Source of the DNA: Holophaga sp.
GTDB taxonomy: Bacteria > Acidobacteriota > Holophagae > Holophagales > Holophagaceae
Assembly: GCA_035353395.1 (NCBI GenBank)
Contig: DAOPZL010000009.1
Location: forward strand, 5,687-69,686
DNA length: 64,000 nt
Reading direction: 5' to 3'
The position numbers and the translations under genes were made by a program. The stretch's first letter is position 1. Each line of letters starts with the position of its first letter. The notes under the pieces are model-generated. The model searched no databases and was not told the origin of the DNA. It saw only the letters and a program-made list of their open reading frames with translations. Below are positions 11,771 through 53,154 of the stretch, in pieces.

Positions 11771-12280
11771 TCATGTGTGAAGCTGCGCCACGCGGTTCCG
11801 GATCTGCCCCTCGTCGGCCGTGTCTTTGCAGTTGTTGCAGAGCCCGAAGATCTGGAGGCTGTGGTGCATGGGTTTGAAGGCGTGCTCCCCGCAGATGTTC
11901 TCCTGGAGGGTCTCCAGGTCGGGGCGGAAGAACTCGATCACCTTGCCGCAGTTCAGGCAGATCAAGTGGTCGTGGTGCTCGTTTTCCCGGGCCGCCTCGT
12001 AGTTCGCGTGGCCGGAGCCCAGGCTGTCCTTGCGGACGAGGCCGCACTGGACGAGGAGGTCCAGGGTCCGGTAGACGGTCGCCCGGCTGATGTCCCCCCC
12101 CCTGGCCCGGAGGCCGGCGTGCAGGGTTTCCGCGTCGAAGTGGCTGTCCCGGTTGAAGATGGCATTCAGGATCGCCATGCGCTCGCCAGTCAGTTTCAGT
12201 TTCTTGCCGCGCAGGAATCCCTCGAAGCGCAGCTCTTCCTGCGTAGGGGACTTGCGGGAAGCAGGGCTGTTCGACCCCAT
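11771..12280 (-). CDS. Fur-family metalloregulator (Fur/Zur/PerR type)
   Basis: Track ORF of 169 aa. It has a winged HTH (ISRATVYRTLDLLVQCGLV), HHDHLICLNCGKVIEF and a C-terminal CNNC metal site. Confidence 0.85.
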   Translation of the reverse strand: MGSNSPASRKSPTQEELRFEGFLRGKKLKLTGERMAILNAIFNRDSHFDAETLHAGLRARGGDISRATVYRTLDLLVQCGLVRKDSLGSGHANYEAARENEHHDHLICLNCGKVIEFFRPDLETLQENICGEHAFKPMHHSLQIFGLCNNCKDTADEGQIRNRVAQLHT

Positions 12281-12377
12281 GGAAATCTCCAGGAAAGTTG
12301 TCTGAAGAAGAGATACACTGAATCCTCTTGCTCGATGACTAGCTTAAATTATAGTCGCCGTATTTATGGGAGTCGAA

Positions 12378-12938
12378 ATGCCACTGGTCAAGATTCAGGG
12401 GGTACGGCTATCCGCCGACCTGAAGAAGCGAATCGGTGATCACATCATCGACGCCTTCCATCGTGAAGGCATTCCGGGCAGCTCCGTGATCGTAGTCTAC
12501 TCCCGCGAGGACGTGGACATCCTCCTGGACGGGGGCTACCTGATCGAGTCGACGGTCGACCCGTCGCCCCAGGCCCCGCGCCCGGCCCTGGAGGCGCCGG
12601 CTCAGGCCTCGGCCGAGGTCCTGGACGAGTTCAAGACCCGGTCCCGCAGGACCAAGGCCGAACTGGCGGACCTGAAGGCCCAGCTGGTGAACAGCCTGCA
12701 GAACAACCCCGCGCTTTCGAGCTTCCAGGCCCAGGAAGAGCTGGGCCTCAAGGACTGCGACTGGGCGCCCGCCACGCTGCGCCGCTTCTTCTCGGAGCTG
12801 GAGGAGGAAGGCCTGATCACCAAGCAGGGCCAGAAGCGGGGGACCCGCTACGTCTGGAAGGGCTTCCCCCAGCAGGCCCAGGACCTCGCGCCCAGGCTGG
12901 TGAAGAGGCCGGAAGCGACGGAAGACGCGGAGGCATAG
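12378..12938 (+). CDS. hypothetical protein: 4-oxalocrotonate-tautomerase-like N-domain fused to a winged-helix-like C-domain
   Basis: Track ORF 12366..12938 with ATG 12378, giving the N-terminus MPLVKIQGV (Met-Pro as in tautomerase-superfamily proteins). The first ~60 aa follow the 4-OT beta-alpha-beta pattern. Next comes a Pro/Ala-rich linker. The C-terminus (FFSELEEEGLITKQGQKRGTRYVWK) looks like a wHTH wing. Confidence 0.5.
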   Translation: MPLVKIQGVRLSADLKKRIGDHIIDAFHREGIPGSSVIVVYSREDVDILLDGGYLIESTVDPSPQAPRPALEAPAQASAEVLDEFKTRSRRTKAELADLKAQLVNSLQNNPALSSFQAQEELGLKDCDWAPATLRRFFSELEEEGLITKQGQKRGTRYVWKGFPQQAQDLAPRLVKRPEATEDAEA

Positions 12939-12963
12939 GCCCCCTGTCCCGAGGGCATCCTGC

Positions 12964-14100
12964 ATGCTTTTCGATTCCCCCAGCTCCTTCGGACGCTCCT
13001 TCCGGATCCTGACCTTCGGCGAGAGCCATGGACCGGCGGTGGGCGTCGTCCTGGACGGCGTGAAGCCCGGCCTCCCTTTCGACGCGGCGGCGATCCAGCG
13101 GGAGCTGGACCGCCGCCGTCCCGGCCAGTCGGAGCTGGTCACTCCGCGTTCCGAGGCCGACCGGGTGCAGGTCCTCTCGGGCGTCCACGAAGGCCGGACC
13201 ACGGGGCACCCCATCGCGCTCGTGGTGTTCAACCAGAACCTGCGCAGCGGCGACTATGCCGGCATCCGGGACCTCTTCCGGCCAGGCCACGCCGACCTGA
13301 CCTACGAGCGGAAGTACGGCTTGAGGGATCCCCGGGGAGGGGGACGGTCCAGCGGCCGCGAAACCTTGGCCCGGGTGGCGGCCGGAGCCTGGGCCAAGCA
13401 GCAGCTCGCGCCCCTGGGCGTCCGGATCAGGGGCTTCAACCGGGAGATCGCGGGCCTCGCCGGCGGGAGCCTGGACTGGGATTTCGTCGAGCGGAATCCC
13501 CTGAGGGTGGCGGATCCCGGGACTTTCGAGGCCCAGAAGGCCCTGGTGGAAGCGGCCAGGGCCGACCACGACTCCGTGGGAGGTGTCACGGAGGTCTGGA
13601 TCGAGGGGCTGCCCCTCGGCCTGGGGGATCCCGCTTTCGCCAAGCTGGACGCCTTGCTGGCCTATGCCTGCATGAGCATCGGGGCGGTGAAGGGGGTGGA
13701 GATCGGCGCGGGTTTCGCGGCGGCGCGCATGCGCGGCTCCGGGAACAACGATCCGATCGGGCCGGAGGGTCCGCTCAAGAACGATGCGGGCGGAGTCCTC
13801 GGCGGCATCTCCGACGGTGCTCCGGTGATCCTGCGCCTCGCGGTGAAGCCCACCCCGTCCATCGCCCGGATCCAGCGGACCGTCGACCGGGCGGGGCGGG
13901 AATCCGAGATCACGGTCCAGGGCCGCCACGACCCCTGCATCGCCCCCAGGATCGTGCCCGTGGCGGAGGCCATGTGCGCCCTGGTCGTCTACGACCTGTG
14001 GCTCACCCAGCAGGATCTCGTCGAGGGAGCCCTCCCCGCGGCGGGCGAGTGGGACTGGGCCGCGGTGGACACCCTGCTGGGGCAGGCTCCGGCGCCCTGA
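12964..14100 (+). CDS. aroC: chorismate synthase
   Basis: Track ORF of 378 aa. Motifs: FRILTFGESHGPAVGVVLDG, GGGRSSGRETLARV, GRHDPCI. Confidence 0.95.
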   Translation: MLFDSPSSFGRSFRILTFGESHGPAVGVVLDGVKPGLPFDAAAIQRELDRRRPGQSELVTPRSEADRVQVLSGVHEGRTTGHPIALVVFNQNLRSGDYAGIRDLFRPGHADLTYERKYGLRDPRGGGRSSGRETLARVAAGAWAKQQLAPLGVRIRGFNREIAGLAGGSLDWDFVERNPLRVADPGTFEAQKALVEAARADHDSVGGVTEVWIEGLPLGLGDPAFAKLDALLAYACMSIGAVKGVEIGAGFAAARMRGSGNNDPIGPEGPLKNDAGGVLGGISDGAPVILRLAVKPTPSIARIQRTVDRAGRESEITVQGRHDPCIAPRIVPVAEAMCALVVYDLWLTQQDLVEGALPAAGEWDWAAVDTLLGQAPAP

Positions 14101-14137
14101 AGCTTGACGGGGAGAAAAAAAGGCGAATACTTGCGGT

Positions 14138-15046
14138 ATGTCTTCGTCCTTGTTCCCTTCCGAGACTTCCCCGGTCCTTATCAAGGATCTGAGCGTGGAG
14201 CCGGAGGAGGCCAGGAGCATCCTGCGCCCCCAGCGGGACGACCAGTATGGCTTCGGCTATACCCTCAGCCCATACCGGGGATGCGCCCACGGATGCCGAT
14301 ACTGCTTCCTGAGGGAATACCCGAACGCCGTCCACGGTCCCGGCGAATGGGGCGGCTGGGTGACGCCCAAGCTCAACGCCCCCGGGCTGCTCTGGTCCCA
14401 GCGGCACAGGCTCCACGAGCAATCCGTCTTCCTCTCCACCGCCACGGATCCCTACCAGCCCATCGAGCGCGAATTCCATCTCACGCGCGCGTGCCTGGAG
14501 GTGCTCCTGGACTGCCTCACCACCCAGGTGCTCCTGCATACCCGGTCCCCACTGGTGGTGAAGGACCTCGATCTCCTGAAGAGGTTCGGCGACCGGCTCG
14601 TCGTGGGCTTCTCCATCCCCACGGACGACGACACGGTGAGGCAGGTGGTGGAACCCAAGGCCCCGCCGATCCCCAGCCGGTGGGCCGCCGTGGAGAGGCT
14701 CGCCAGGGCGGGGATCCGGGTGAACCTCGCCGCGACCCCGCTGATGCCCATGACGGATCCGGAAGGATTCGCCCGCCGGGCCCGGGAAAGCGGCGTCTCG
14801 AACCTCTGGGTGGGCTCCCTGAGGCTGCTGAGGAACGACCCCTTCTATGACGTGCTGGTCCGCAACCGCTGGCTGAAGGTGCTCGACCAGGACTATGTCG
14901 AGGAGATCCGCGGGATCCTGACGGAGGCCTTGCCCCAGGCCCGGCACCGCAGACGCCGGGCGCCGAGGCCGTCCCGTGCCCGGCCGGCCGTGCCGAAGCT
15001 GGTCCCGCCCAGGCCTGTGCAGCCCGGGCTGTTCGATCTTCTGTAG
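14138..15046 (+). CDS. radical SAM protein (SplB/DNA-photolyase-like family)
   Basis: Track ORF of 302 aa. A CxxxCxxC cluster motif is present (YRGCAHGCRYCFL). Size and layout are as in the spore-photoproduct-lyase-related radical SAM family. Confidence 0.75.
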   Translation: MSSSLFPSETSPVLIKDLSVEPEEARSILRPQRDDQYGFGYTLSPYRGCAHGCRYCFLREYPNAVHGPGEWGGWVTPKLNAPGLLWSQRHRLHEQSVFLSTATDPYQPIEREFHLTRACLEVLLDCLTTQVLLHTRSPLVVKDLDLLKRFGDRLVVGFSIPTDDDTVRQVVEPKAPPIPSRWAAVERLARAGIRVNLAATPLMPMTDPEGFARRARESGVSNLWVGSLRLLRNDPFYDVLVRNRWLKVLDQDYVEEIRGILTEALPQARHRRRRAPRPSRARPAVPKLVPPRPVQPGLFDLL

Positions 15047-16758: not shown

Positions 16759-16913
16759 ACATGTTATTTTTATCTTCCGAATTCTGGATAGCATAGCCAT
16801 GTTCCGGTGGATCTGATTTCATGCGCACCCAGGCAGGAGAATGCAAGTCGTCCCCCTTTCCCCATGCAGGAAAGGACAGGAAGCCTGCCGCCGCATACGG
16901 CTATTCCGTCGCC

Positions 16914-29770: not shown

Positions 29771-29870
29771 GGGATCTCCTCGGCACCGACCCAGCTTACT
29801 CCGGCCCCGGCCGTCCAGGACTGCATCCGGGACCCTCGCTTCCCTCTTCCCTTCGAGGGCGGAATCTCCT

Positions 29871-29965
29871 AGAATATGATTCAATAATTCAAACCGAATG
29901 ATTTTATCAATCGTTGTTTATATAAATATTTATATAATAAATGTTAAAAAATATACACTAATTAC
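29871..29965 (+). promoter_or_regulatory. extremely AT-rich leader / probable promoter region upstream of vgrG
   Basis: Line 29881-29940 contains only 10 G+C in 60 nt by hand count, against about 40/60 in surrounding coding DNA. It contains many TATAAT-like hexamers. No specific -35/-10 pair can be assigned. Confidence 0.4.
29918..29937. repeat. perfect 20-bp palindrome TTATATAAATATTTATATAA
   Basis: Read directly; the reverse complement equals the forward sequence. It lies about 50 nt upstream of the vgrG start. Confidence 0.9.
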
Positions 29966-29986
29966 TTGATCATGAGGAATCTTGCC

Positions 29987-32671
29987 ATGCCCATCCTGGA
30001 ACCTGCTGCATGGGGCCGCGGTCTGGAGGAACGGTTCCGGTCCTTCCTCACCCAGGACACGCGGCTGGTGGAGCTGCACCCCTCCCTCGATGCCGGGTTC
30101 CCGGACGGCATGCTCCTGGCGCGCCGGGTCACGGGCTGGGAGGCCGTGAACGAGGGCTTCCGCTACGAAGTCGAGGTCCTGTCCCCGGACGCCTTCCTGG
30201 AGCTGAAGGCCCTCGAGGGCATGCCCGTCCAGGTCGCCCTCCTCACCGCCGGCGGCACCCGGCGGGAGATCAACGGCGTGGTCATGGAAGTCCGCAGCGA
30301 GGGTTCGGACGGCGCCCTCGCCGCCTACCGCCTGGTCGTCGAGCCCGTCACCGCCGCTCTGAAGCATGGCCGCACGTCGAGGGTCTACCTGGGACGGACC
30401 GATCTGGAGGTCGCGCGCCAGCTCCTGGACGAGGCCCTCCGGGACAATCCCGTCTTCGCCGCCTGCTTCGGCATCGACAACCGCTGCCGGGGCCGCTTCC
30501 CGGTCCGGGAGTTCATCTTCCAGTGCGGGGAGACCCCCTGGGACTTCATCCGCCGTCGTCTCGCCGGGATCGGCGTCTCCTTCGTCTTCGCCCCCGCGAA
30601 GGATGGTTCACCCGACTTCCCCCAGCACACCCTGGTCCTCTTCGACGACCCCCGGGACCTGGACGGGAACGAGGCGGGGACCGTGCGCTTCCACCGGGCC
30701 GACGGCACGGAGCGGGCCGATTCGATCACGCGGTGGCATGCCCGGCGGACGCTCCAGTGCAGCCGGGTGACGCGCCGGGCCTGGAACCACGCCCAGGGTT
30801 CCTGCAGCACGGCCGCGGAAGAGGTGGGGGCCGACCAAGGGCCGTTCGGGAATGCCCTGGCCAGCACGCTCGAGGACTACCGGCACGAGCCGCCCCTGGA
30901 GCAGGAGGGCCTGGAGGTCCCCGAGGCCCGCGCGGCTGCCGCTTCCCGGGGGAGGAGCCAGCGCACCAAGGCCTTCGAGGGGGAGGGCAGCGTGCGGGAG
31001 TTCCGGGCCGGGACCTGCTTCACCCTGAGTCAGCACCCCGTCCACGACCAGGATCCGCCGGAGAACCGGGAGTTCGTGCTCACGCGGGTGGAACTGGAGG
31101 CCGTGAACAACCTGCCGGAGGGACTGGCGCAGGCCCTCGGCCGCCGGGGGGAGGCGGGAGGCCAAGTCTACCGCAACCGCTTCGAGGGCCTCCGCCGGGG
31201 GATCCCCCTCCTCCCCGAGGAACTCCCCGCGCCCGTTCCGGGCCTCCAGACGGCGACGGTGGTGGGGCCCGGGCAGGAAGCCGTGCACACGGATGCCTGG
31301 GGCCGGATCAAGGTCCGGCTCCACTGCGCCCGTCCCGAGGACCACCCGGAGGCCGGAGCCACCGGCACGGACCGGGACAGCTTCTGGATCCGGGCCGTGC
31401 AGCCCTGGTCGAGCCAGGGCATGGGGGGCACCTTCCTTCCCCGGACGGGGGACGAAGTCCTGCTGGACTTCCTCGGGAACGATCCGGACAGGCCTGTGGT
31501 GGTGGGGGTCCTGCCGGGCGGCACGCGCCCGCCGGGGCGCTTCAGCGACGCGACCTGCCTGCCGGGAGACCGGGCGGTCTCGGGCCTGCGCTCCAGGGTG
31601 CACGGCGGCCTCGCCGGGAGCGAACTGCTGTTCGACGACACCCCAGGGGAGGTCCGGACTCGGCTGGCCAGCGACCATGCCCGCACGGAGCTGAACCTGG
31701 GCTTCAACGTCCATCCCCGGCGGAACGGGGTGGCCGAGCCGCGGGGGGAGGGCGCGGAGCTGAGGACCGACGCCGCCGTGGCCCTTCGGGGCGGACAAGG
31801 GGTGCTGATCAGCGCCGACGCCCGTCCGGGCGCGGGCGGCTCGCAACTCTCGCGCGAGGAGGCCCTGGGGCACCTGGAGGCGGGTCTGGAGCTGGCGAGG
31901 ACTGCCGGGGAACTGGGCGGCCGGCACGGCCTGGAGGGTCTGGAGGACAGCTCCCGGGCGGATCTCCTGGAGTGCGTCCGGGCCTGGGAGCAGGCTCCCG
32001 GATACCCGGGCGGCCGGAGCTCCATCCTGCTCGCCAGCGCCCCCGCCGGGATGGCGCTCGCCTCGGGGGACGGCGCAACGGTGCAGGCCGCGAGCAACCT
32101 GGACCTGGGGGCCATGCGGAACCTCCAGGCGAGTGCGGGCCGGCGGATGCTCTTCCACGCCCTGGAATCCATCGGGCTCTTCGCGCACCGCATGGGCATG
32201 AAGCTCGTCGCCGCCTCCGGCGACATCTCCATCCAGGCCCAGGACGGGAACGCGGAGGTGGTTGCCGCCAAGGCGCTGCGCCTGCTGTCCGTGGGGGGTC
32301 CCCTCGAACTGGACGCCGCGAAGGGAATCGTCCTGCGTTCCGGCGGCGCCTTCCTGGAAATCAAGGACGGAGGTATCCGGGCCGGGGGCACCGCCGGCTG
32401 GTTGGGCCAGTTCGCGAACGTCGCCTGGGCCGGCCCCGCCAACCGGGAAGCGAGGACGCGCTCGTTCACGAAGAGCACCGCGAGGATGGACGAGGCGTTC
32501 GTGCTCATCGATCCCCTGGGTGAGCCCGCCGGGAAGATGCGCTACCGGATCACCCGGGAGGACGGGAGCACGGTGGAGGGTGTGAGCGACGACCAGGGGC
32601 GGACGGAACTCTGCACGGGCGAACTCGCAGGCGCTCTGGAAATCCAGGTGTTCGGACCCGAGGAGGCATGA
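29987..32671 (+). CDS. vgrG: type VI secretion system spike protein VgrG with DUF2345-like region and TTR-like C-terminal tail
   Basis: Track ORF 29966..32671. ATG 29987 is preceded by AGGA at 8 nt; TTG 29966 and ATG 29972 are alternatives. It has a gp27-like N-domain and a gp5 OB-fold signature (AWGRIKVRLHCARPED..FWIRAVQPWSSQGMGGTFLPRTGDEVLLDFLGNDPDRPVVVGVL). Beta-helix repeats, a DUF2345-like segment (LFAHRMGMKLVAASGDISIQAQDGNAEVVAAK) and a 61-aa tail follow. Confidence 0.9.
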   Translation: MPILEPAAWGRGLEERFRSFLTQDTRLVELHPSLDAGFPDGMLLARRVTGWEAVNEGFRYEVEVLSPDAFLELKALEGMPVQVALLTAGGTRREINGVVMEVRSEGSDGALAAYRLVVEPVTAALKHGRTSRVYLGRTDLEVARQLLDEALRDNPVFAACFGIDNRCRGRFPVREFIFQCGETPWDFIRRRLAGIGVSFVFAPAKDGSPDFPQHTLVLFDDPRDLDGNEAGTVRFHRADGTERADSITRWHARRTLQCSRVTRRAWNHAQGSCSTAAEEVGADQGPFGNALASTLEDYRHEPPLEQEGLEVPEARAAAASRGRSQRTKAFEGEGSVREFRAGTCFTLSQHPVHDQDPPENREFVLTRVELEAVNNLPEGLAQALGRRGEAGGQVYRNRFEGLRRGIPLLPEELPAPVPGLQTATVVGPGQEAVHTDAWGRIKVRLHCARPEDHPEAGATGTDRDSFWIRAVQPWSSQGMGGTFLPRTGDEVLLDFLGNDPDRPVVVGVLPGGTRPPGRFSDATCLPGDRAVSGLRSRVHGGLAGSELLFDDTPGEVRTRLASDHARTELNLGFNVHPRRNGVAEPRGEGAELRTDAAVALRGGQGVLISADARPGAGGSQLSREEALGHLEAGLELARTAGELGGRHGLEGLEDSSRADLLECVRAWEQAPGYPGGRSSILLASAPAGMALASGDGATVQAASNLDLGAMRNLQASAGRRMLFHALESIGLFAHRMGMKLVAASGDISIQAQDGNAEVVAAKALRLLSVGGPLELDAAKGIVLRSGGAFLEIKDGGIRAGGTAGWLGQFANVAWAGPANREARTRSFTKSTARMDEAFVLIDPLGEPAGKMRYRITREDGSTVEGVSDDQGRTELCTGELAGALEIQVFGPEEA

Positions 32672-34530
32672 TGACCGTGGATCCGCTGCGTCCGGTGGAC
32701 CGCGAAGTGCAGAAGGACGGCACAGTGAAGGCCAGGTCCGCCCTGAGCCCCGAGTCCTTCAAGACGCGGGCGGAGGTCCTGGTGCCGTCGCGCAAGGTCA
32801 TCCCCGTCATCTTCGTGCCCGGGGTCATGGGATCGAACCTCAAGGTGAAGTCCGGGCGGGAAATCCCCGTGGGAACGGCCTACCGGAAGGCGGGCCAGGA
32901 CTACACCGCCAAGACCTGGACGCCGAACGAGGGCTTGTCCATGCTCACGCGGATGAGTTGCTACCCCCCCGCCCTTCGCCAGGTGATTCTCAACAAGGAC
33001 AATGTCGAGGTGGACGGCGAGGGGATGGTGGACGTGACCGGTCTCCCGCTGTCCGCCCAGGAAGCCAGGGCCAGGGGCTGGGGCGAGGTCATGTGGGAGG
33101 GCGCCTACGGGCAGCTCCTCCGGAGCCTGGAGTGTGATCTGTCGCGCTTCATGTATCCCCCCGGTCCTGGGGCGACCCAGCCGAAACTCAGCAGTTGGTG
33201 GAACGAGATGCATCATGCAGGCCAAGTGATCCCGGGAGATCCCTACGGGAATCGGACTCCCGTCAAGTCACGGATTCCAGCCAGTTTCCGGTTGACCCTG
33301 GAGGACATCAAGAAGGCGGGTGCCTTCCGTTTCCCGGTGCATGCCTGCGGCTACAACTGGCTGCAGTCCAACGCGGACTCGGCCAAGCGGCTCAAGGGGA
33401 AGATCGAGGCTGTCATCAGGAAGTACGCGGAAGCGAAGGGACCGGACGGCAAGCCCGCCTTCGAGTGCCGCCACGTCATCCTCGTGACCCACTCCATGGG
33501 GGGCTTCGTGGCCCGGATGGCCTCGAAGCTCCTGAAGAACGAGGGACATGAGGACAAGATCCTGGGCATCGTGCATGGGGAGATGCCCGCCCTGGGCGCG
33601 CCGGTCATGTACCGCCGCATGGCGTGCGGGTTCGAGTCCGACGGGAGCATCGGAGGTTTGGGTTTTGCCTGCATCGCGGGCTCGACCACTTCCAAAGCCA
33701 ATCCAGTCCTGGCCTTCAGCCCCGCCGCCCTTGAACTGGCCCCGACGCCGGACTACCCCGGCCCGTGGCTGCTTGCGGAGATTGCGGAAAATCAAACCAG
33801 CAGGCATGTGTTAGGACTACCTGCACATGGCGATCCCTATGGAGAGATTTTTTTGGCAAAGGGGAAATGGTATTGCCCAGTGGTTGAATGGATGTTAGAT
33901 CCAGCAAAATTGCACGTTAATAAATTTGGGAAGAATAGTTCTTGGGAAGATTACGTAAAAATCGTAACAGAAGCACAACTGTTTCATTGTGGTGCGAAAG
34001 CAGATTTTAAAAAACAAGATGAAAAGGAACGATTTCTTGGTAATTATTATCATCCCAAAACGTATATACATTATGGAGAAAATGAAAAAATTGATACATT
34101 AAATCATGTTCATTGGAGAGCGGAATTGCTTTATGAAAAACCATTCAATAATGGTGGAGCGAGTCGATTCTACCAATCTGCAAATCTAAAAAATACTAAC
34201 GGAAAAAATATTCGTGGAGTTGAACTGGATGTACTGGAAAGCTGGAGCCTCGGTCAGATAGAAGCGGAAAGGAAGGTGGCAAAAACAAATGGCCACCCTC
34301 TCGTCATCCCGAAAATTGTGCAGGAATTTCGATGTCACCACAAGAATCGCAAGGGGATCAGCAACAGGGGCGACGGAACGGTTCCAGATGTCAGTGGTGC
34401 ATTTCCCAGTCGACACGGAGTAAAGCAGATATACATACTTAGCGGCTTCGATCACCAGGGCGCCTATGAAAACGCAGTGGTCCGCGGGGCCACCTTCTTC
34501 GCCATCGTGGACATGGTGAAGCGGCTGTGA
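32668..34530 (+). CDS. putative T6SS lipase/phospholipase effector (alpha/beta hydrolase, Tle-like)
   Basis: Track ORF of 620 aa. Its start overlaps the vgrG stop (ATGA at 32668-32671). Oxyanion-type start of the fold: VIPVIFVPGVMGSNL. Nucleophile elbow: THSMGG (Ser codon 33493-33495). Candidate Asp in GDGTVPD (34372-34374) and candidate His in GFDHQG (34453-34455). The T6SS role is inferred from context. Confidence 0.65.
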   Translation: MMTVDPLRPVDREVQKDGTVKARSALSPESFKTRAEVLVPSRKVIPVIFVPGVMGSNLKVKSGREIPVGTAYRKAGQDYTAKTWTPNEGLSMLTRMSCYPPALRQVILNKDNVEVDGEGMVDVTGLPLSAQEARARGWGEVMWEGAYGQLLRSLECDLSRFMYPPGPGATQPKLSSWWNEMHHAGQVIPGDPYGNRTPVKSRIPASFRLTLEDIKKAGAFRFPVHACGYNWLQSNADSAKRLKGKIEAVIRKYAEAKGPDGKPAFECRHVILVTHSMGGFVARMASKLLKNEGHEDKILGIVHGEMPALGAPVMYRRMACGFESDGSIGGLGFACIAGSTTSKANPVLAFSPAALELAPTPDYPGPWLLAEIAENQTSRHVLGLPAHGDPYGEIFLAKGKWYCPVVEWMLDPAKLHVNKFGKNSSWEDYVKIVTEAQLFHCGAKADFKKQDEKERFLGNYYHPKTYIHYGENEKIDTLNHVHWRAELLYEKPFNNGGASRFYQSANLKNTNGKNIRGVELDVLESWSLGQIEAERKVAKTNGHPLVIPKIVQEFRCHHKNRKGISNRGDGTVPDVSGAFPSRHGVKQIYILSGFDHQGAYENAVVRGATFFAIVDMVKRL

Positions 34531-34540
34531 GGAGGACCTG

Positions 34541-35974
34541 ATGCGGACGCGGCCCCAGATCGCGAAAATCGTTGCCGTGACCCTGGCCTGCCTGATGGCC
34601 TTCGGCGCGTGGCGGCACCACGAGAGAAACCGGAAACGGGAGTTGCACATGCCCATGAAGACCTACGCCGCAGGGCGTTTCCAGTTGGATATCCCCGAAC
34701 CCTCCACCCTCGCGGGGTGGGGGCGCCAGGACATTCCTATCGGGTCGATAACTGTATTTCCTGAGATCTCCAAGCGAAAATTCCAGAAAATGATTGTTGA
34801 TGATCGCGTCGCCAGCCTGAAGAACGTCACGAGAAAATTCGGGAAACTTCTCAGTGAAACATCAACCGATATGGTCGATGTGGGTGAGGGAACCCTTCTG
34901 GAGAAGTACGTTCATGACCAGGTGCCAAATTCATCACATGTGTTGTTCTGGGGAGAGGATGGATTCAAAGGAGAAGGATGCAAACGTGAAACCTATTACT
35001 GGATTGAGACTCCAGGCAACTTCTCTCAAGAAGGTGTGGGTTATCGTTTCGAGGGTGGCATCTGGGTGGATGCAGGGAAACAACAAACCGCACTGAGAGA
35101 AATATCCGATTATCTCTCTCGCATTCGTCCAAGAAGGGATGACGAGGTTCCCCAGGAGCCTGGGTATTGTTTTCAACACGCATTCCTCGCGGGGGATGTA
35201 CCCTCCCCGTCAGACGAATGTTTCGAAGCCATCGCTGCCGAATGGCGCTTGGCGCATCACCCGGACGTGGTGATCAGCCTCTACACCCAGGGGGCGCCGA
35301 CCGTGAAGCCGGAAGGCCTCATCGCCCGGCACCGGGGGGCCATGCCGGAGGTCCTCGCCCGGTTCATCCGCGGAGTCCGGAGCCGGAAACGCACCCTCGG
35401 CGAATATGCCGGGGAGGAGATCGTCGTCAGGACCAAGGAAAAGAACGGCACATCCGGCTGCAACGCCATGTGGGAATTCGAAGGGGGCGACGAGAGGGAC
35501 CTGACTCGGCCCTACATCATGGTGCAGATGTTCTCCGGCAGCGGGGACAAGGAGCCCGTGGAGAGCAGTCTCTCGGAGGCGGAATTCCTGGCCATGTGGG
35601 ACGCGGTCCTGGAATCCTTCCGCTGGCGGGGCCCGAAGCCGGGGACGGGCTCTCCGGTTTCCGAGATGCCCCCGGCAGCAGCTCCCAGGCCCCGATCCGC
35701 CCTGGGAACCCGCATCCGTTCAGGCGAGCGATGTCCGGAGGCGGGCACCTGGACCTGTGCCCACGGGGAGAATCTCGGGGGCGCGAAACGCGTGTTCCGG
35801 GAAGGGGAGGAACTGCCCGCGGCGGTCCTGGATGTCCGGCGCGGCTGGTTCGGCACGCTGATGGGACGCCCCGCGGAAACCGTGGTGGACACCGTCTGGA
35901 CCCTCGCGGGCTATCCGGAAGGCACCCCGCTCTGCGATCAGAGCGCTATGGGGTCCCCAGCAGCCCCTTCGTGA
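34541..35974 (+). CDS. putative cognate immunity protein (Tli4-like), signal-anchored or secreted
   Basis: Track ORF of 477 aa starting 10 nt after the effector stop. It has an N-terminal hydrophobic segment (IAKIVAVTLACLMAFGAW). Motifs I associate with the Tli4 family: GRFQLDIP near the N-terminus, PGYCF in the middle, and LAMWDAVLESFRWR near the end of the core. An extra ~100-aa Cys-containing tail follows. Confidence 0.6.
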   Translation: MRTRPQIAKIVAVTLACLMAFGAWRHHERNRKRELHMPMKTYAAGRFQLDIPEPSTLAGWGRQDIPIGSITVFPEISKRKFQKMIVDDRVASLKNVTRKFGKLLSETSTDMVDVGEGTLLEKYVHDQVPNSSHVLFWGEDGFKGEGCKRETYYWIETPGNFSQEGVGYRFEGGIWVDAGKQQTALREISDYLSRIRPRRDDEVPQEPGYCFQHAFLAGDVPSPSDECFEAIAAEWRLAHHPDVVISLYTQGAPTVKPEGLIARHRGAMPEVLARFIRGVRSRKRTLGEYAGEEIVVRTKEKNGTSGCNAMWEFEGGDERDLTRPYIMVQMFSGSGDKEPVESSLSEAEFLAMWDAVLESFRWRGPKPGTGSPVSEMPPAAAPRPRSALGTRIRSGERCPEAGTWTCAHGENLGGAKRVFREGEELPAAVLDVRRGWFGTLMGRPAETVVDTVWTLAGYPEGTPLCDQSAMGSPAAPS

Positions 35975-45244: not shown

Positions 45245-45334
45245 ATAGTTTGGCCCCCTCGCCGATGCGGAAAATCCTACACCCGACCTGAAAGGTCAAC
45301 AAGCTCGAAAAGGGAAAAAGTTTTTCGAAATATC

Positions 45335-45348
45335 GATGTAATTACATC
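45335..45348. promoter_or_regulatory. perfect 14-bp palindrome GATGTAATTACATC upstream of the kor operon (candidate operator)
   Basis: Read directly. It sits in the AT-richer 156-nt spacer between the sdaAA stop (45401) and the korD start (45244), about 90 nt upstream of korD. The regulatory role is inferred only. Confidence 0.35.
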
Positions 45349-45400
45349 ATTTAATTGAGTTACACGACAGAATCGATAAGAAGAAATTTGTTCACGAAAC

Positions 45401-46330
45401 TTACGCATGCTTGTTTTGTTGACAATATGCAAAAGATATTCCCGGTTCCGTTTCCGCCTCGAGGCCCGGACTTGCAGCTTTCACGGGCAGGAGAGCCAAG
45501 CCCCCGCGGGCCGTTTCGCGAAACTCTTCCGGTAACCGCCTCCCCACCTTTCCCATGGTCTCGATGACTTCGTCCGCAGAAAAAAGGCTTTCACAGCCGG
45601 CGAGGGCCATTTCCGCTGACAGGACCGCATTGCTCGCGCCCAGCGCGTTGCGCTTCACGCAGGGGACCTCCACGAGGCCCCGCACCGGATCGCAGATCAG
45701 GCCCAGGATGTTGCCGAGGGCGAAGGCCACGGCGCTTCCGGCCTGGGCCGGCGATCCTCCCATCATCTCGACCAGCGCGCCGGCGGCCATGGCCGAGGCC
45801 GAGCCGACCTCCGCCTGGCAGCCGCCTTCCGCCCCGCTGAGCGACGCGGAACGCTCGATGACGAGGCCGATGCCTCCGGCGGTGAAGAAGGCCTCCACGA
45901 GCCGCTCTTCCGCGATCCCGCGCGCCTCGGCCACCGTGAAGAGGGCGGCCGGAAGGACGCCGCAGGAGCCGGCCGTGGGGGCCGCGACGATCCGGCCCAT
46001 GCATGCGTTGACCTCCGCGACGGCCATGGCCGCAGCCACCAGGCGCGAGAAGTCCGCCCCGAGCAGGGAGCCGCCCCCCGCGGCCCAGTCCGTGATCCGG
46101 TGGGCCTCGCCGGAGATCAGCCCGCTGCGGGAACGCTGGGGGGATTCGAGTCCCCGGGCGAGGGCCTGGCGCATGACCCCGATGCGCGCGCGCATGAGGT
46201 CCCGAAGCTCCGTCTCCGGCTTCCCGGACTCGCGCGCCTCGTCCCGCAGGAAGACGCCGGAGAGCGGTCCTCCCGCCTCCTCGGCCACGGCGATGGTGCG
46301 CCCCAGGGAGCCTTCCTTCCCCTTCTGCAT
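45401..46330 (-). CDS. sdaAA: L-serine ammonia-lyase (Fe-S dependent), alpha subunit
   Basis: Track ORF of 309 aa. The SDH_alpha pattern is present: VAEVNACMGRIVAAPTAGSCGVLPAAL..GGCQAEVGSASAMAA. Confidence 0.9.
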   Translation of the reverse strand: MQKGKEGSLGRTIAVAEEAGGPLSGVFLRDEARESGKPETELRDLMRARIGVMRQALARGLESPQRSRSGLISGEAHRITDWAAGGGSLLGADFSRLVAAAMAVAEVNACMGRIVAAPTAGSCGVLPAALFTVAEARGIAEERLVEAFFTAGGIGLVIERSASLSGAEGGCQAEVGSASAMAAGALVEMMGGSPAQAGSAVAFALGNILGLICDPVRGLVEVPCVKRNALGASNAVLSAEMALAGCESLFSADEVIETMGKVGRRLPEEFRETARGGLALLPVKAASPGLEAETEPGISFAYCQQNKHA

Positions 46331-49551: not shown

Positions 49552-51072
49552 CTACTGGATCAGCTGGGTGGCCTTCTCGTCGTCCTCGAGTTCGTCCATC
49601 GCCAGCCGCCGGAAGATGGCCATGTCGGCCAGGGACATGAAGCTGATGTAGGCGAAGCCGCTGAAGAAGAGCCAGAGGAAGGGGACGGAGGCCCACTTCC
49701 GGAGGTAGACGGCGATCCCCATGGCCACGAGATAGTAGACGGCGAAGGCCAGGTCCAGGAAGGTGATGAGGCTCTTGGGCACCTTGTAGGCCCGCTTGCT
49801 GATGGCCTTGCCGTTCTCGTCCACGCCCAGCTTGGGCGTGCGCTTGAACTCGATGTCGTTGGTGAAGAAGCCTTCCAGCACGGCCTTGGCCTGGTTCAGG
49901 CCGAGCCCGATGCCGAGGCTCATCAGGCAGGGAATGTACTTGATCCGCTTGGTCCAGCCCTTGTTGTTCTTCACCTCGCGCTGGGACAGGCCGAAGTAGA
50001 GGCCCACGCTCACGGCGTTCAGCACGAAGAACGGGCCGTCGGTGAGCAGCAGGATCTTCGCGGGGGTTCCGGTGCGGAAGACCATGCAGGGAACCATGAT
50101 GATGGCCAGGATGACCATCAGGATGTAGTTGCAGTTGGCGGTCAGGTGGAACCAGCACTCGGCCTTGGTGTGCAGGCTCTCCTTGCTGGTGAGGAGGGTC
50201 TTCATGAGCTTGCGGATGACCTGGGCGTTGCCCTTGGCCCAGCGGTGCTGCTGGCTCTTGAAGGCGTTCACCTCCACGGGCAGCTCGGCGGGGACCACGA
50301 GGTCCTTGAGGTAGACGCCCCGCCAGCCCTTCAGCTGGGCGCGGTAGCTCAGGTCGGCGTCCTCGGTGATGGTGTCGTGCTGCCACCCGCCCGCGTCGGC
50401 GATGGCCGAGACGCGCCACATGCCCGCGGTGCCGGAGAAGTTGAAGAAGGCATTGGACCGGTGGCGGGCGGTGTGCTCGTAGATGAAGTGGCCGTCGAGC
50501 AGGATGGCCTGGACCTGGGTCAGGAGGGAGAAGTCCCGGTTGAGGTGGTCCCAGCAGCCCTGGATGAAGGCGATCTTGTCGTCGGCGAAGTGGGGGACGG
50601 CCTTCCGGAGGAAGTCCGGGGTGGGGAGGAAGTCGGCGTCGAACATGGCCACGAACTCGCCCTTGGCGGCCTTGAGGCCGTTGTCCAGGGCGCCGGCCTT
50701 GAAGCCGGTGCGGTCCGTGCGGTGGATGTAGCTGATGTCGTAACCCAGGAGGCGGTACCGCTCGCAGATGTTCTGGGCCACCTTGACGGTGTCGTCCGTG
50801 GAGTCGTCCAGCACCTGGATCTCGAGCTTCTCCTTGGGCCAGTCCATGCGGACGACGTAGTCCATGAGGCGCTCCACGACGTTCATCTCGTTGAAGATCG
50901 CGAGCTGCACGGTGACCATCGGGAGGAAGTCCGGTCCGCCCTTGGGCTGGGGCACGTCCTTCTTGTGCCGGTAGTAAAGGATGAGCATCCAGAGCCGATG
51001 GGCCCCATAGATGCTGAGAATGGACAAGATCGTGAAGTAGGTCGCGAGCACGATCGTGCGGACGAGTTCCAT
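49552..51072 (-). CDS. family-2 glycosyltransferase, processive cellulose-synthase-like type
   Basis: Track ORF 49552..51150 trimmed to ATG 51072, which is preceded by GAGGAGG at ~10 nt. It has an N-terminal TM helix, DDS and DAD motifs (QVLDDSTDDT; AMFDADF), TED (TITEDADLS), QxxRW (QQHRWAKG) and C-terminal TM helices. Confidence 0.85.
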   Translation of the reverse strand: MELVRTIVLATYFTILSILSIYGAHRLWMLILYYRHKKDVPQPKGGPDFLPMVTVQLAIFNEMNVVERLMDYVVRMDWPKEKLEIQVLDDSTDDTVKVAQNICERYRLLGYDISYIHRTDRTGFKAGALDNGLKAAKGEFVAMFDADFLPTPDFLRKAVPHFADDKIAFIQGCWDHLNRDFSLLTQVQAILLDGHFIYEHTARHRSNAFFNFSGTAGMWRVSAIADAGGWQHDTITEDADLSYRAQLKGWRGVYLKDLVVPAELPVEVNAFKSQQHRWAKGNAQVIRKLMKTLLTSKESLHTKAECWFHLTANCNYILMVILAIIMVPCMVFRTGTPAKILLLTDGPFFVLNAVSVGLYFGLSQREVKNNKGWTKRIKYIPCLMSLGIGLGLNQAKAVLEGFFTNDIEFKRTPKLGVDENGKAISKRAYKVPKSLITFLDLAFAVYYLVAMGIAVYLRKWASVPFLWLFFSGFAYISFMSLADMAIFRRLAMDELEDDEKATQLIQ

Positions 51073-51240
51073 CGCTATCAAACCTCCTCGCCCACCAGCA
51101 TGAGCGAACCTCAATTCTGCCATCTTTTCGTCGAAAAGTCCTTTCATCATTAGGGAAAAACATTGGGAAAACTCGTGCCAATTTCAGCTAAAATGCTAAA
51201 AGTCCTTGATTCCTGATCGGTTGCCCCAGAGCGAACACGA

Positions 51241-53154
51241 ATGCCAGATACCGAGAACATCCCCAGGACCATCGGCCGCTACGAGGTCAGGCGTCAGCTC
51301 GGAGCGGGCGCCATGGGTTGCGTCTACCTCGCGGAGGACCCTCGGATCAAGCGCAAGCTGGCCATCAAGGTCGTGAAGCTGGACGCCATGCGCAGCGAGG
51401 AGGACCGCCGGGAGTACCTGGCGCGCTTCCAGCGGGAAGCGGAGGTGTCGGGAGTCCTCAACGATCCGGGCATCGTCACCATCTATGATGTGGGCGACAG
51501 CGACATGGGGCCCTTCCTGGCCATGGAATACGTCCAGGGGCAGCCCCTGGACGGCCTCATCAAGTCCGGGCGGCTGCCGGCCATGCCGCTCCGGGCCAAG
51601 CTGAGGATCGCCTGCGGGGTGGCCGCGGCCCTGGATCACGCCCACGCCCACAACATCGTCCACCGGGACGTGAAGCCGGGCAACGTCATCCTCACGGAGG
51701 ACGGGCGGCCCAAGCTCATGGACTTCGGCATCGCCAAGCGCGAGGACGCCTCCCTGACGCAGACGGGCACCTTCCTGGGGACCCCCAGCTATGCGAGCCC
51801 CGAGCAGATCAAGGAGGGCCACGCGACCCTCCTCTCGGACGTGTTCAGCTTCGGCGTGATGATCTTCGAGCTCCTGTCCGGGACCTTGCCGTTCCCCGGG
51901 ACCTCGATCAACACGATCCTCTACCGGATCGTCAACGAGCAGCCGGTGGAGGTGAATCCCCCGGTCGCCGGCCTGCTTCCCGACGCCTGGCAGCGGATCT
52001 TCCTGAGGGTCCTCTCCAAGAACCCGGGGGAGCGCCATCCCTCCTGCTCGGCCTTCGTCCGGGAACTGATCGAAGCGGCGACGGAACTGGATCCGTCCGT
52101 CCGGACGGAACTCCTGGGCCTGCTCCGGCAGGGGGCCGTGCCCCTGGTGATGCCGCCGACCCCCATCACCCGGACCCTGGACGACACCCAGGCCACGAGC
52201 CGGCGCAGGATCCGTCCGGGCTCGAGGGGGGTGCTCTACGGCGGGATCCTGGCGGGGCTCGTGGTCCTGGGACTGGGCTTCTTCCTGTTCTCGGGCAAGG
52301 CCGGAGAGGAAGTCCGCCTCACGACCGATCCCCCCCAGGCGACCCTGGCCATGAACGGGCAGGTCCTGGACGCGAACAAGCCGCTGATCATGAAGGAGGG
52401 GGACCGGCTCGAGATCCGGAAGCCGGGCTTCGTGACGGCGCAGTACGTGCACGGGAGGGGCGACAAGGCCCCCCGGATCGTCCTGCAGCCGGTCCTGAGC
52501 GAGGTGAGGCTGCGCACGGATCCGCCCGGCGCCGAGGTCGTCCTGGATTCCCGCAAGCTGCAGGGCGCCACCCCCTTGGTGATCAAGGACTGGAACCAGG
52601 GCCAGCTCCACGACTTGACCTTCACGCATCCCCAGTCCGGCGTCGGGCTCTCCACCCGCTTCGACGTGGGGGAGGTTCCCGGGGACAAGGTCTTCAAGCT
52701 CCTGCCCCTGGACGAGCTGCGCACGACGGGCGAGACGGGCAACGTGGTCTCCTCCTCGACGGGGGTCCTCAAGCTGGCGGGCGGCTTCACGGCCCGGGTC
52801 AAGGTGGACGGAAAGGACGTGGGGGGAGGCGCCAGGCTTTCGCTCGCCCCCGGCAGCCACAGGATCGACCTCGCCAACCCGAAGGTCTTCTACCAGGAGA
52901 CCCGGACGGTGCAGATCACCGCCGGCCAGACGGTGACGGTCGCCCTGCCGGACCTGGCCAGGCTGACCGTCTCCACCTTCCCGTCCTCGGGGACCATCGT
53001 GATCGACGGGGTGCCCACGGAGGTGGAAAGCGACGGCAGCACCGCCATTCCGGTGGTCAAGGGCAGGCACACCATCAGCATCCAGGGAAGGGAGGGCAGC
53101 TCCCGCACCATCGAGGTGGACAAGGAAACCCTGGAGCTGAATTTCAAGATCTAG
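51241..53154 (+). CDS. Ser/Thr protein kinase with TM segment and C-terminal PEGA-like domains
   Basis: Track ORF of 637 aa. Kinase motifs: GAGAMGCVY, AIKVV, HRDVKPGNVIL, DFGIAK, GTPSYASPEQ. It has a TM helix (GGILAGLVVLGLGFFLF) and at least 3 PEGA-like repeats (LTTDPPQATLAMNGQ; LRTDPPGAEVVLDSR; LTVSTFPSSGTIVIDG). Confidence 0.9.
   Translation: MPDTENIPRTIGRYEVRRQLGAGAMGCVYLAEDPRIKRKLAIKVVKLDAMRSEEDRREYLARFQREAEVSGVLNDPGIVTIYDVGDSDMGPFLAMEYVQGQPLDGLIKSGRLPAMPLRAKLRIACGVAAALDHAHAHNIVHRDVKPGNVILTEDGRPKLMDFGIAKREDASLTQTGTFLGTPSYASPEQIKEGHATLLSDVFSFGVMIFELLSGTLPFPGTSINTILYRIVNEQPVEVNPPVAGLLPDAWQRIFLRVLSKNPGERHPSCSAFVRELIEAATELDPSVRTELLGLLRQGAVPLVMPPTPITRTLDDTQATSRRRIRPGSRGVLYGGILAGLVVLGLGFFLFSGKAGEEVRLTTDPPQATLAMNGQVLDANKPLIMKEGDRLEIRKPGFVTAQYVHGRGDKAPRIVLQPVLSEVRLRTDPPGAEVVLDSRKLQGATPLVIKDWNQGQLHDLTFTHPQSGVGLSTRFDVGEVPGDKVFKLLPLDELRTTGETGNVVSSSTGVLKLAGGFTARVKVDGKDVGGGARLSLAPGSHRIDLANPKVFYQETRTVQITAGQTVTVALPDLARLTVSTFPSSGTIVIDGVPTEVESDGSTAIPVVKGRHTISIQGREGSSRTIEVDKETLELNFKI

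Follow-up and report, generated by a model that had tools for sequence, protein, structure and literature searches.

We found that the gene for a predicted Tle4-type T6SS phospholipase in a Holophaga MAG is a recombinant mosaic with defined breakpoints, and that its marked fall in GC content is not an effect of regional composition. The immunity gene directly downstream bears a mosaic patch of its own, which is coupled to the AT-rich block of the effector. We think it fairly probable that an effector-immunity specificity cassette was exchanged, of which the block makes up one half, and that it came from an unsampled AT-rich allele pool.

The 64,000-nt stretch of DNA analysed (the window) carries an island with the order vgrG-tle4-tli4, all on the forward strand. 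The vgrG gene, encoding the T6SS spike (29966..32671; Pfam Phage_GPD, 3.9e-61, T6SS_Vgr and DUF2345; TIGR03361), overlaps with its stop the start of the effector gene (32668..34530), an arrangement also seen in the loci L001, L170 and L171. The effector ORF is a single intact frame encoding 620 aa, as the original prediction held. After a spacer of 10 nt follows the immunity gene (34541..35974, 477 aa), the product of which falls in the Tli4 family (Pfam Tli4_C, 1.5e-30; PDB 4r1d_B, 8.3e-18); the next gene 3′ of it, on the opposite strand, encodes a FAD-dependent reductase. No orphan toxin-tip/immunity cassette and no orphan immunity gene was seen downstream of tli4 in the window. L001, a relative of 69.5% GC with 56% identity, shares the vgrG-tle4-tli4 context and has a second tli4 copy, without an orphan block.

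By homology and modelled fold, the effector is predicted to be a Tle4-type T6SS phospholipase. A phmmer search aligned residues 34-485, including the THSMGG nucleophile motif, to 4r1d_A (E 1.3e-43). The AF2 model (pLDDT 91.6) shows an alpha/beta-hydrolase fold into which cap segments are inserted, as in 4R1D, and its best Foldseek match was again 4r1d_A (E 1.9e-32, TM 0.62/0.73), followed by LPLA2 and LCAT. The nucleophile Ser276 lies at 33493..33495 and the catalytic His596 at 34453..34455, the latter in native high-GC sequence; the catalytic Asp569 (34372-34374) lies in the motif GDGTVP (34369..34386). Ser276 was invariant among the 119 aligned sequences, and Asp569 and His596 were each conserved in at least 90% of them. 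The three residues occupy the coordinates first proposed for them, with the block between Ser and His, and the original reading of the gene as a T6SS effector with a triad flanking the block is upheld.

The block itself comprises codons 372-591 (33781..34440), as delimited by GC3, by a break in identity and by a breakpoint test. GC in 120-nt windows fell from 0.63-0.68 to 0.28-0.38 across 33840-34200, and the lowest 300-nt window (GC 0.323, at 33901) lay at z = -7.8 relative to the remainder of the 64-kb window, in which no value fell below 0.447. The five G+C counts first made by hand (25/60, 20/60, 21/60, 40/60 and 41/60) were all exact. GC3 in 30-codon windows dropped from about 0.90 to 0.10-0.23 at codons 430-500 and was 0.83 in the last window, from codon 591; before, in and after the block it was 0.86, 0.25 and 0.63, respectively, with the maximum-likelihood change-point at codon 372 (nt 33781). 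Two-fold codons flipped from G/C-ending to A/T-ending forms (Lys AAA:AAG from 2:21 to 14:7; Asn AAT:AAC from 3:7 to 13:2), and sliding-window GC, GC3 and codon counts together confirmed the switch to A/T-ending codons that had been claimed. The FYMINK fraction of the block was 0.37, against 0.21-0.29 at the same positions of homologues. Two observations had been named beforehand as speaking against the claim, an equal dip in high-GC relatives and an undepressed GC3; for the extreme dip neither was made, since GC3 is strongly depressed and L001, of high GC and in the same context, has no appreciable dip (GC3 0.73-1.0 throughout the gene).

The 5′ junction coincides with the motif TPDYPGPWLLAE (YPGPWL; 33745..33780), directly after which GC3 collapses. 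Similarity to the 92% identical L006 stops at 33794; that to the related locus L005 is first broken at 33780 and resumes at GDGTVP. Nucleotide differences from L005 amounted to 6.8% upstream of the block, rose to 55% in 33891-34365 and returned to low values at about 34414; in successive segments along effector and immunity genes they ran 6.8%, 54.7%, 17.9%, 42.5% and 8.3%. The highly divergent core of the block is 33891-34365 (aa ~409-566), with a hypervariable centre at aa 471-565. A two-breakpoint maximum chi-squared test of the window against L005 gave 377, compared with a permutation maximum of 26. At the protein level, identity to P0003 was 92%, 46% and 90% for residues 1-374, 375-590 and 591-620, respectively. 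The N part was closest to P0003 and P0004 (91-92%), whereas the block was equidistant (41-48%) from all homologues, and the block of P0003 grouped with P0002 and P0005. The maximum chi-squared value, the L005 and L006 breaks and this contrast in identity bear out a mosaic made by recombination, with breakpoints about where they had been placed. No flanking direct or inverted repeats, the signature of site-specific recombination, were detected beyond short chance-level matches. Ongoing local hypermutation was ruled out, because only 1 of 648 nt of the block differs between the window and L002 while differences cluster elsewhere.

The event had also been called recent. The unameliorated state of the block agrees with this, but an AT-rich 5′ edge (33822-33890) is common to the window and L005, and because of this sharing there is a hint that AT-rich sequence at the block site predates their split.

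In the immunity gene, the patch covers aa 76-165 of the N-terminal lobe (34766..35035); identity to L005 is 51% there, compared with 94-95% in the segment that follows. The patch precedes, on the N-terminal side, the stretch alignable to the solved C-terminal lobe (4r1d_B). GC3 of the immunity gene falls to 0.37-0.57 over codons ~55-220, a feature absent from the original prediction. All four assemblies with the block (4/4) also carry the same immunity patch, and the depths of the effector and immunity dips were correlated across 139 loci (Spearman 0.35, p = 3e-5). Block and patch are separated by a native 'bridge' (34414..34773), made up of the effector C-terminus, the 10-nt spacer and immunity aa 1-77, which has a GC of 0.62-0.67 and 78-92% nucleotide identity to L005. 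Since this bridge divides the two AT-rich lobes, a single contiguous import would need a second event. Within the patch, the window and L005 alleles were equally AT-enriched (polarity 43:41). The effectors paired with the closest patch alleles and with L173 (L172, L173) had blocks no closer to that of the window, with 29% and 12% identity over residues 471-565.

Block and patch were placed on the two proteins by homology, with the contacts in the 4R1D complex taken from the summary given in a single paper (PMC5611513). As described there and in a preprint (bioRxiv 10.1101/2023.03.28.534661), the Tle4 cap is built of inserted segments, of which the large subdomain contacts domain I of TplEi and the small one domain II. 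In the confident model of the window effector, the block sits between beta6 and the Asp loop. By this analogy the block would be most of the large cap insertion, the region gripped by the Tli4 N-terminal lobe, and block and immunity patch may together form the effector-immunity interface. What bears on a colicin-like co-diversification of the interface is the two coupled mosaic patches, their assignment to the large cap subdomain and domain I following from homology and the literature.

The pattern recurs. In a second Holophagaceae tle4 lineage, L144 and L045 are 93-98% identical in the flanks and have no nucleotide similarity in the AT-rich tract; protein identity is 82%, 43% and 61% along the gene, and divergence begins after the equivalent YPPGWL motif. 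Both alleles are AT-rich and mutually divergent, and the tract extends without a break from the 3′ part of the effector gene into the immunity gene. A mild GC3 dip at the block-equivalent position was present in 147 of 167 family loci (median 0.083), and the drop in the window, 0.58, exceeds the 99th percentile of the family (0.45). The single isolated event originally envisaged does not fit with the coupled immunity patch, the AT-rich tract in other high-GC loci and the family-wide mild dip. Recurrence in two Holophagaceae lineages, in Zoogloea and in others suggests a general feature of the family rather than a one-off, and the correlated GC3 dips in both genes at about 140 loci point the same way. 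The AT-rich alleles of L144 and L045, the patch polarity of 43:41 and the mild dips in 147/167 loci are as compatible with a standing property of a hypervariable region as with repeated import.

The mechanism we propose is as follows. The predicted phospholipase would be delivered by VgrG and neutralised in kin cells by the periplasmic Tli4 encoded downstream. Crossovers by homologous recombination would be anchored at two conserved stretches, YPGPWL 5′ of the swapped segment and GDGTVP, the loop of the catalytic Asp, 3′ of it. The segment, which separates the nucleophile half of the hydrolase from its Asp/His half, would give way to an AT-rich and deeply divergent allele from within the subfamily. 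The replaced region would be the equivalent of the large cap subdomain of Tle4, and the matching patch of the immunity lobe (aa 76-165) would likewise be replaced. Native sequence would remain in the catalytic frame, in the parts that load onto VgrG and in the C-terminal lobe of Tli4. Exchange of block and patch would change specificity, giving an otherwise unaltered weapon a new lock-and-key type, or compatibility group. Such extreme AT-richness would then be that of DNA not yet equilibrated to its host, and we infer an origin of the block in an unsampled AT-rich allele pool, either a low-GC organism or a horizontally circulating pool of cassettes.

We searched for such a donor. HMMER against 1.84 billion protein representatives (about 15 billion proteins, clustered at 50% identity, so that a donor in the same cluster would be hidden) returned 10 matches, of which the best, P0005 (50%) and P0009 (46%), belong to the same subfamily. 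The 90%-cluster list held nine close relatives only, all of which were examined. Block peptides had no match in metagenome contigs, and tblastn with the block gave one 27% match to a Cupriavidus chromid among plasmids and none among phages. Scans of genomes and metagenomes with the family alignment yielded only relatives of at most 40% identity, which served as the null distribution for the GC3 dip. The sampled family hosts are all of mid to high GC (locus GC 0.49-0.70). The low-GC donor assumed in the original prediction was thus found in none of the protein, plasmid and phage searches. A word-index protein search with the block also returned nothing, missing even the 98% identical P0001, and is a failure of sensitivity rather than evidence. 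That no donor or closer allele was found, with 50% as the best identity, counts against exchange.

Among the alternatives, origin in situ survives best, although we consider it unlikely. Here block and patch would be ancient balanced specificity alleles, held by frequency-dependent selection with no foreign donor; alleles too divergent to recombine would escape a recombination-linked force such as GC-biased gene conversion and drift to the AT-rich mutational equilibrium, while their flanks are homogenised. Such an origin agrees with the absence of a donor in the ~15 billion proteins as represented and with the mid to high GC of family hosts, with the AT-richness of both alleles in L144/L045 and in the immunity patch, and with a GC3 depression that is graded, family-wide and co-localised with the variable regions of both genes. 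It agrees, too, with the gradual fall of GC3 at the block edges and the AT-rich 5′ edge shared with L005. However, GC3 of 0.10-0.20 is far below what weakly constrained DNA of the window attains; because its intergenic DNA averages a GC of 0.64, neutral decay in situ is not evident. Likewise, the pseudogene-like effector remnant P0009 retains a GC3 of ~0.7. The block of L001 is as divergent as the others and yet has a GC3 of 0.86-0.89, so divergence alone does not yield AT-richness, the magnitude of which varies widely among alleles of similar age. The accompanying proposal, that the AT-richness is not foreign at all and that the family-wide graded dip (147/167) reads out allele age as non-recombining balanced alleles decay to AT equilibrium, seems to us distinctly doubtful.

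The reading closest to the original prediction, in which a resident effector of high GC received, in one recent insertion, an additional discrete domain from a low-GC organism, we regard as improbable. The GC3 collapse, the A/T-ending codons, the AT-type shift in amino acids and the phylogenetic incongruence of N part and block are all in its favour. However, there is no gain in length: homologues are of the same length and align throughout, the indel state of the block is shared with close homologues, and the block, which is homologous to the segment it replaces, keeps the family-invariant Y391, P412, H440 and W483. Nor is the domain of a foreign kind. Its nearest relatives (43-50% identity) belong to the same close mid/high-GC subfamily, against 20-26% for distant Tle4 genes. 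The lack of a low-GC donor, the coupled second patch in the immunity gene and the recurrence at other loci also argue against insertion.

We find it very unlikely that the AT-rich tract persists because it serves a separate role, as an internal promoter for the immunity gene, a silencing target or a translational pause made by rare codons. AT-rich DNA does lie upstream of the immunity gene, with one promoter-like match at 34410-34439, and A/T-ending codons are rare in this genome. Yet the promoter-like count is at shuffle expectation (1 against 0.7), and neither promoters nor terminators were enriched in the tract beyond it. Nor would a regulatory element be expected to map, as the tract does, to a hypervariable part of the protein and to recombination breakpoints, and the high-GC relative L001 manages without such a tract. 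A conserved amino-acid-composition or codon effect of the region, acting without recombination, is more improbable still: the slightly lower GC3 in most family loci is in keeping with it, but as the cause of the extreme dip it is refuted by L001, by the flip in synonymous codon choice and by the sharp breakpoints against L005 and L006, and the window drop lies beyond the 99th percentile. Finally, a metagenome assembly chimera, in which reads of two organisms were joined at conserved motifs, is barely credible despite the MAG-type assembly, the junctions at conserved motifs and the L006 contig that ends at the junction, because the same junctions and block occur in independent samples and assemblers on contigs of up to 119 kb (the block is byte-identical in two JGI samples and differs by one base in an ENA contig, and the same protein cluster is found in NCBI TPA MAGs and Logan contigs), with reading frame and catalytic residues intact.

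The window pair resembles Tle4/TplE (PA1510)-Tli4/TplEi (PA1509) of the Pseudomonas aeruginosa H2-T6SS (4R1D, 5H7Y) in its alpha/beta-hydrolase with a THSMGG elbow, Asp in GD(G/E)TVP, His in HQ and cap insertions, and in having, directly downstream, a gene for the cognate periplasmic immunity protein, which carries a Tli4_C domain, as well as linkage to vgrG. It differs in that the effector is only 26% identical, the host belongs to Acidobacteriota (Holophaga) and not Pseudomonadota, and the immunity protein is longer by a C-terminal extension of ~90 aa; published work on PA1510/PA1509 covers one allele pair, without allelic cassette exchange of the cap. In Vibrio cholerae, T6SS effector-immunity modules are replaced via homologous recombination, and, as here, the effector-immunity type differs among closely related strains (Kirchberger et al. 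2017, PMC5361080). Vibrio, however, swaps whole effector genes or domains with immunity genes, often leaving orphan immunity genes (PMC5361080), whereas the exchange in the window would involve a sub-domain between catalytic residues and one immunity lobe, with no orphan immunity gene.

Shuffling of a polymorphic toxin, as first proposed, holds in part. In Rhs and CdiA-CT toxins the C-terminal part is displaced together with its immunity gene (Jackson et al. 2009, PMC2935791; Zhang et al. 2012, PMC3482391), and the window shares with them a conserved motif, TPDYPGPWLLAE, that opens a hypervariable 3′ part, with the immunity gene 10 nt downstream. What is missing is the exchange of unrelated toxin folds on a delivery scaffold and the standalone orphan cassettes downstream: the alleles carry homologous blocks, set within a single hydrolase fold; fold, triad and C-terminal helix are kept and only the part predicted to be recognised by the immunity protein changes. 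In E. coli rhs elements the variable tips are classically AT-richer than the GC-rich core, and L144/L045 show a comparable contiguous tract from effector into immunity gene. For nuclease colicins and pyocins, work by Riley in the 1990s reportedly found divergence concentrated in the immunity-binding part of the toxin and in the immunity gene, giving rise to new specificities. The window is alike in that divergence falls on the putatively immunity-bound part and the immunity gene with catalytic function conserved; colicins, however, are plasmid-borne bacteriocins with clusters of point substitutions, whereas the window has large, compositionally foreign recombination tracts on a chromosome.

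Exchange of specificity modules is well known from Rhs, CDI, colicins and whole T6SS effector-immunity pairs. In the present case the exchanged unit appears to be a sub-domain, a lipase cap gripped by the immunity protein and excised at conserved motifs from the stretch that separates the catalytic Ser and Asp; of the immunity protein, only the corresponding lobe would move with it. If confirmed, a single-fold enzyme toxin could gain new compatibility types without altering catalysis or delivery, and the boundaries would be precise enough for engineering or predicting Tle4/Tli4 specificity. The extreme AT-richness without a donor is a useful case in the debate over AT-rich newly acquired or fast-turnover bacterial DNA. 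Should the origin in situ prove true, the Tle4-Tli4 loci of high-GC bacteria would offer a natural experiment in which GC-biased gene conversion and selection could be told apart as causes of high GC content in bacteria.

Three further features of the island were noted. An extremely AT-rich intergenic stretch 5′ of vgrG (29866..29965; GC 0.16 over 29885-29965) is probably a promoter region or an island boundary. The C-terminal extension of the immunity gene (35684..35919) has 85% nucleotide identity to L173, a Tli4 that is otherwise only 26-40% identical, and because of this disparity the extension is a separately exchanged or homogenised module. In addition, the effector has a micro-mosaic patch at aa 47-99 (32805..32964), which holds 19 of the 32 differences from the 99.2% identical L002 and which, according to the 4r1d_A alignment and the summary in PMC5611513, overlaps the equivalent of the small cap subdomain ('L peptide') of Tle4.

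Its sequence, its fold, the immunity partner and the link to vgrG identify the locus as a Tle4-Tli4 pair of predicted activity. The effector, a T6SS lipase encoded by a 620-aa ORF on the + strand (tle4, 32668..34530), matches the solved P. aeruginosa Tle4 (4r1d_A, E 1.3e-43). Its AlphaFold model, built with 119 homologues as input, is confident (pLDDT 91.6, pTM 0.92), and the closest structure to the model is again 4r1d_A (E 1.9e-32, TM 0.62/0.73), followed by LPLA2 and LCAT. Together with the upstream vgrG (29966..32671; Phage_GPD, T6SS_Vgr and DUF2345; TIGR03361) and the immunity gene next after it (tli4, 34541..35974; Tli4_C 1.5e-30, match to 4r1d_B), tle4 forms a trio flanked by housekeeping genes. 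Ser276 is invariant among the 119 homologues, of which 90% or more retain Asp569 and His596; the original prediction had placed all three correctly, in a frame that is unbroken as claimed. The intergenic stretch 5′ of vgrG (29866-29965) is very AT-rich, with GC 0.16 over 29885-29965 (the genome's intergenic mean is 0.64), and could be a promoter/regulatory region or an island boundary.

In a window of 68% GC overall, the GC content of the effector gene, measured in 120-nt windows, falls from 0.63-0.68 to 0.28-0.38 across 33840-34200. The lowest 300-nt window (GC 0.323 at 33901) is 7.8 SD under the rest of the window, where the minimum is 0.447. Synonymous sites account for most of the fall: GC3 is ~0.90 over codons 1-350, 0.10-0.23 over codons 430-500 and 0.83 in the final 30-codon window, from codon 591, with a maximum-likelihood change-point at codon 372 (nt 33781). 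Within this block (33781..34440, residues 372-591), two-fold codons switch to A/T endings, and the encoded protein is richer in FYMINK than homologues are over the same stretch. The sharp low-GC block that had been predicted, with five line counts of G+C that were all exact, is therefore also a block of strongly depressed GC3. Further GC minima in the window (45303-46099, 1051-1550, 12151-12550, 50901-51350 and 16759-16820) come nowhere near its depth; their 300-nt windows go down to 0.45-0.52, and one 60-nt window inside 45303-46099 to 0.28.

An assembly artefact was rejected, since two independent JGI samples contain the 648-nt block without a single difference and an ENA contig departs from it at one base. 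Exact look-up assigned the proteins to Holophaga sp. MAGs and found copies of them in assemblies from JGI, ENA, NCBI and Logan, the longest contig reaching 119 kb. Local hypermutation was rejected because only one of the 32 differences that separate the window from L002, a relative with 99.2% nt identity and the same dip, falls inside the block; none falls in the immunity-gene segment 34766..35035 (residues 76-165, the immunity patch). Clusters at 32805-32964 and 35629-35681 hold 19 and nine of the differences, respectively. The former, with ten substitutions at effector aa 47-99, partly covers the counterpart of the Tle4 small cap subdomain ('L peptide'). As the L002 version matches that of another relative, L005, and nearly that of a third, L006, the window holds a separate, GC-richer micro-conversion tract.

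A family property as the cause of the collapse was also ruled out. Block-equivalent GC3 is slightly below that of the N part (residues 1-374) in 147 of 167 non-redundant family loci (median 0.083, Wilcoxon p = 3e-24), and the window's drop of 0.58 lies beyond the 99th percentile (0.45). A mild depression is thus common to the family, but the collapse is confined to certain lineages. Moreover, effector GC3 is 0.73-1.0 over the whole gene in L001, which has the same vgrG-tle4-tli4 context on a 540-kb contig of 69.5% GC (56% identity); in L003 and L004 the dip is mild or absent. L001 carries two tandem, near-identical Tli4 genes 3′ of Tle4 (11884-13260 and 13417-14790), differing mostly in their N-terminal region, a duplication absent from the window.

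We compared the effector with P0003, its homologue in L005 and closest N-part relative. Amino acid identity is 92% over residues 1-374, 46% over 375-590 and 90% over 591-620. Nucleotide differences from L005 amount to 6.8% in 32854-33779, 54.7% in 33891-34365, 17.9% in 34366-34773, 42.5% in 34774-35035 and 8.3% in 35036-35459. A two-breakpoint max-chi2 test against L005 placed breaks at 33910 and 34414 (chi2 = 377; permutation maximum 26). The 5′ junction comes right after the conserved motif TPDYPGPWLLAE, similarity to L006 (92% nt identity) ends at 33794, and similarity to L005 returns at GDGTVP, the catalytic-Asp motif. At 1403-1430 (window 33795 onward) L006 leaves the window sequence exactly where the AT-rich block starts. 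The AT-rich sequence it enters is a different one, with an in-frame stop that gives a product of 381 aa, and the contig ends 28 nt later; L006 may be truncated or carry a third allele, or its assembly may have broken at a junction that varies between strains.

The original prediction read the block as a domain inserted by recent recombination. The max-chi2 result upholds a recombinant mosaic, but the event was a homologous replacement rather than an insertion: the effector is about as long as its homologues and aligns with them across the block, which retains the family-invariant Y391, P412, H440 and W483. The P0003 block groups with those of P0002 and P0005 (58-59%), and the window block is 41-48% identical to all of these. 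It has an 8-residue indel state common to P0002, P0005, P0006 and P0009, yet not to P0003. Identity to close homologues is 58-62% over residues 372-470 and just 23-29% over 471-565. Distant Tle4 genes reach 20-26% in the block; the higher identity to close homologues indicates that the incoming allele came from the same close subfamily. P0009 (L007 10001-11290; also L008 and L009) is a 5′-truncated Tle4 remnant; past the block its C-terminus no longer follows the family, suggesting a frameshift. Its locus lacks vgrG and an immunity gene, lies next to a DDE transposase, shares the window's isochorismatase neighbour and looks like a decayed copy of the window's island in a related genome.

The immunity gene has a dip of its own, with GC3 of 0.37-0.57 over codons ~55-220 vs 0.83-0.97 elsewhere. 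Identity of its product to that of L005 is 83% over residues 41-75, ~50% over the patch and 94-95% over 166-260; the closest match to the patch, P0138 (65%), falls to 55% in 166-260. Block and patch co-occur in all four assemblies carrying the block, L005 differs in both, and effector and immunity dips correlate across 139 loci (Spearman 0.35, p = 3e-5). In the AlphaFold model of the effector, beta6 (298-304) and a helical stretch precede the block, which stops just short of the Asp loop. In the immunity protein, the patch sits N-terminal of residues 167-389, the portion aligning to the solved C-terminal lobe. According to a summary of the 4R1D complex (PMC5611513), TplEi domain I is the partner of the large cap subdomain, the small cap subdomain (TplE 82-108), the Tle4 'L peptide', binds Tli4 domain II, and the listed domain II contact residues (209-274) lie within the C-terminal lobe. 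By analogy with these contacts, the block plausibly lies opposite the patch. The immunity protein also has a C-terminal extension (35684-35919), a Cys-containing module of ~90 aa after a Pro-rich linker, absent from solved Tli4. Identity to the extension of P0143 (L173 3133-3368) reaches 85% in nucleotides and 79% in amino acids, against only 26-40% in the rest of P0143, as would be expected of a module that is exchanged or homogenised on its own.

The pattern recurs in a different Tle4 subfamily, represented by L144 and L045 (the latter an uncultured Holophagaceae MAG), both with ~40% identity to the window in the N part. The two loci match at 93-98% in their flanks, and nucleotide similarity between them is lost across a contiguous 1.2-kb tract of GC 0.17-0.39 that takes in the 3′ part of the effector gene and the 5′ part of the immunity gene; their effectors share 82% of residues over the N part, 43% over the block and 61% at the C-terminal end. 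Weaker versions occur in L116, L035 (Zoogloea) and L173. GC3 change-points of the window, L005, L116 and L035 all lie at most about 15 residues past the YP..WL motif. As the recurrent blocks are unrelated to the window's, no single cassette is moving around.

An exhaustive HMMER search with the block returned no relative above 50% identity, searches of metagenomes, plasmids and phages found nothing useful, and every sampled family host locus has a GC of 0.49-0.70; the predicted low-GC donor is thus unproven. A word-index homology search with the 216-aa block gave no match although the same database has P0001 (215/216 identical), and such negatives with short, compositionally odd queries are untrustworthy. 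We favour turnover of cassettes from an AT-rich, unsampled pool. The main rival, in-situ decay or a standing AT-rich property of the region with no import, fits the AT-richness of both the L144 and L045 alleles, the equal AT-enrichment of the immunity patch in the window and L005, and the mild dip throughout the family. However, intergenic DNA of the window has a mean GC of 0.64, the L001 block is as divergent but GC-rich, and the magnitude of the dip varies widely among alleles.

The effector is not a polymorphic toxin in the sense of a common scaffold that carries toxins of differing fold. Colicin immunity-region diversification is one known case of similar evolutionary behaviour. The others are effector-immunity module replacement in V. 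cholerae (PMC5361080) and Rhs/CDI C-terminal displacement (PMC2935791, PMC3482391). Unlike these three cases, the window is without orphan cassettes, and the exchange concerns a segment within a single catalytic fold together with just one lobe of the immunity protein.
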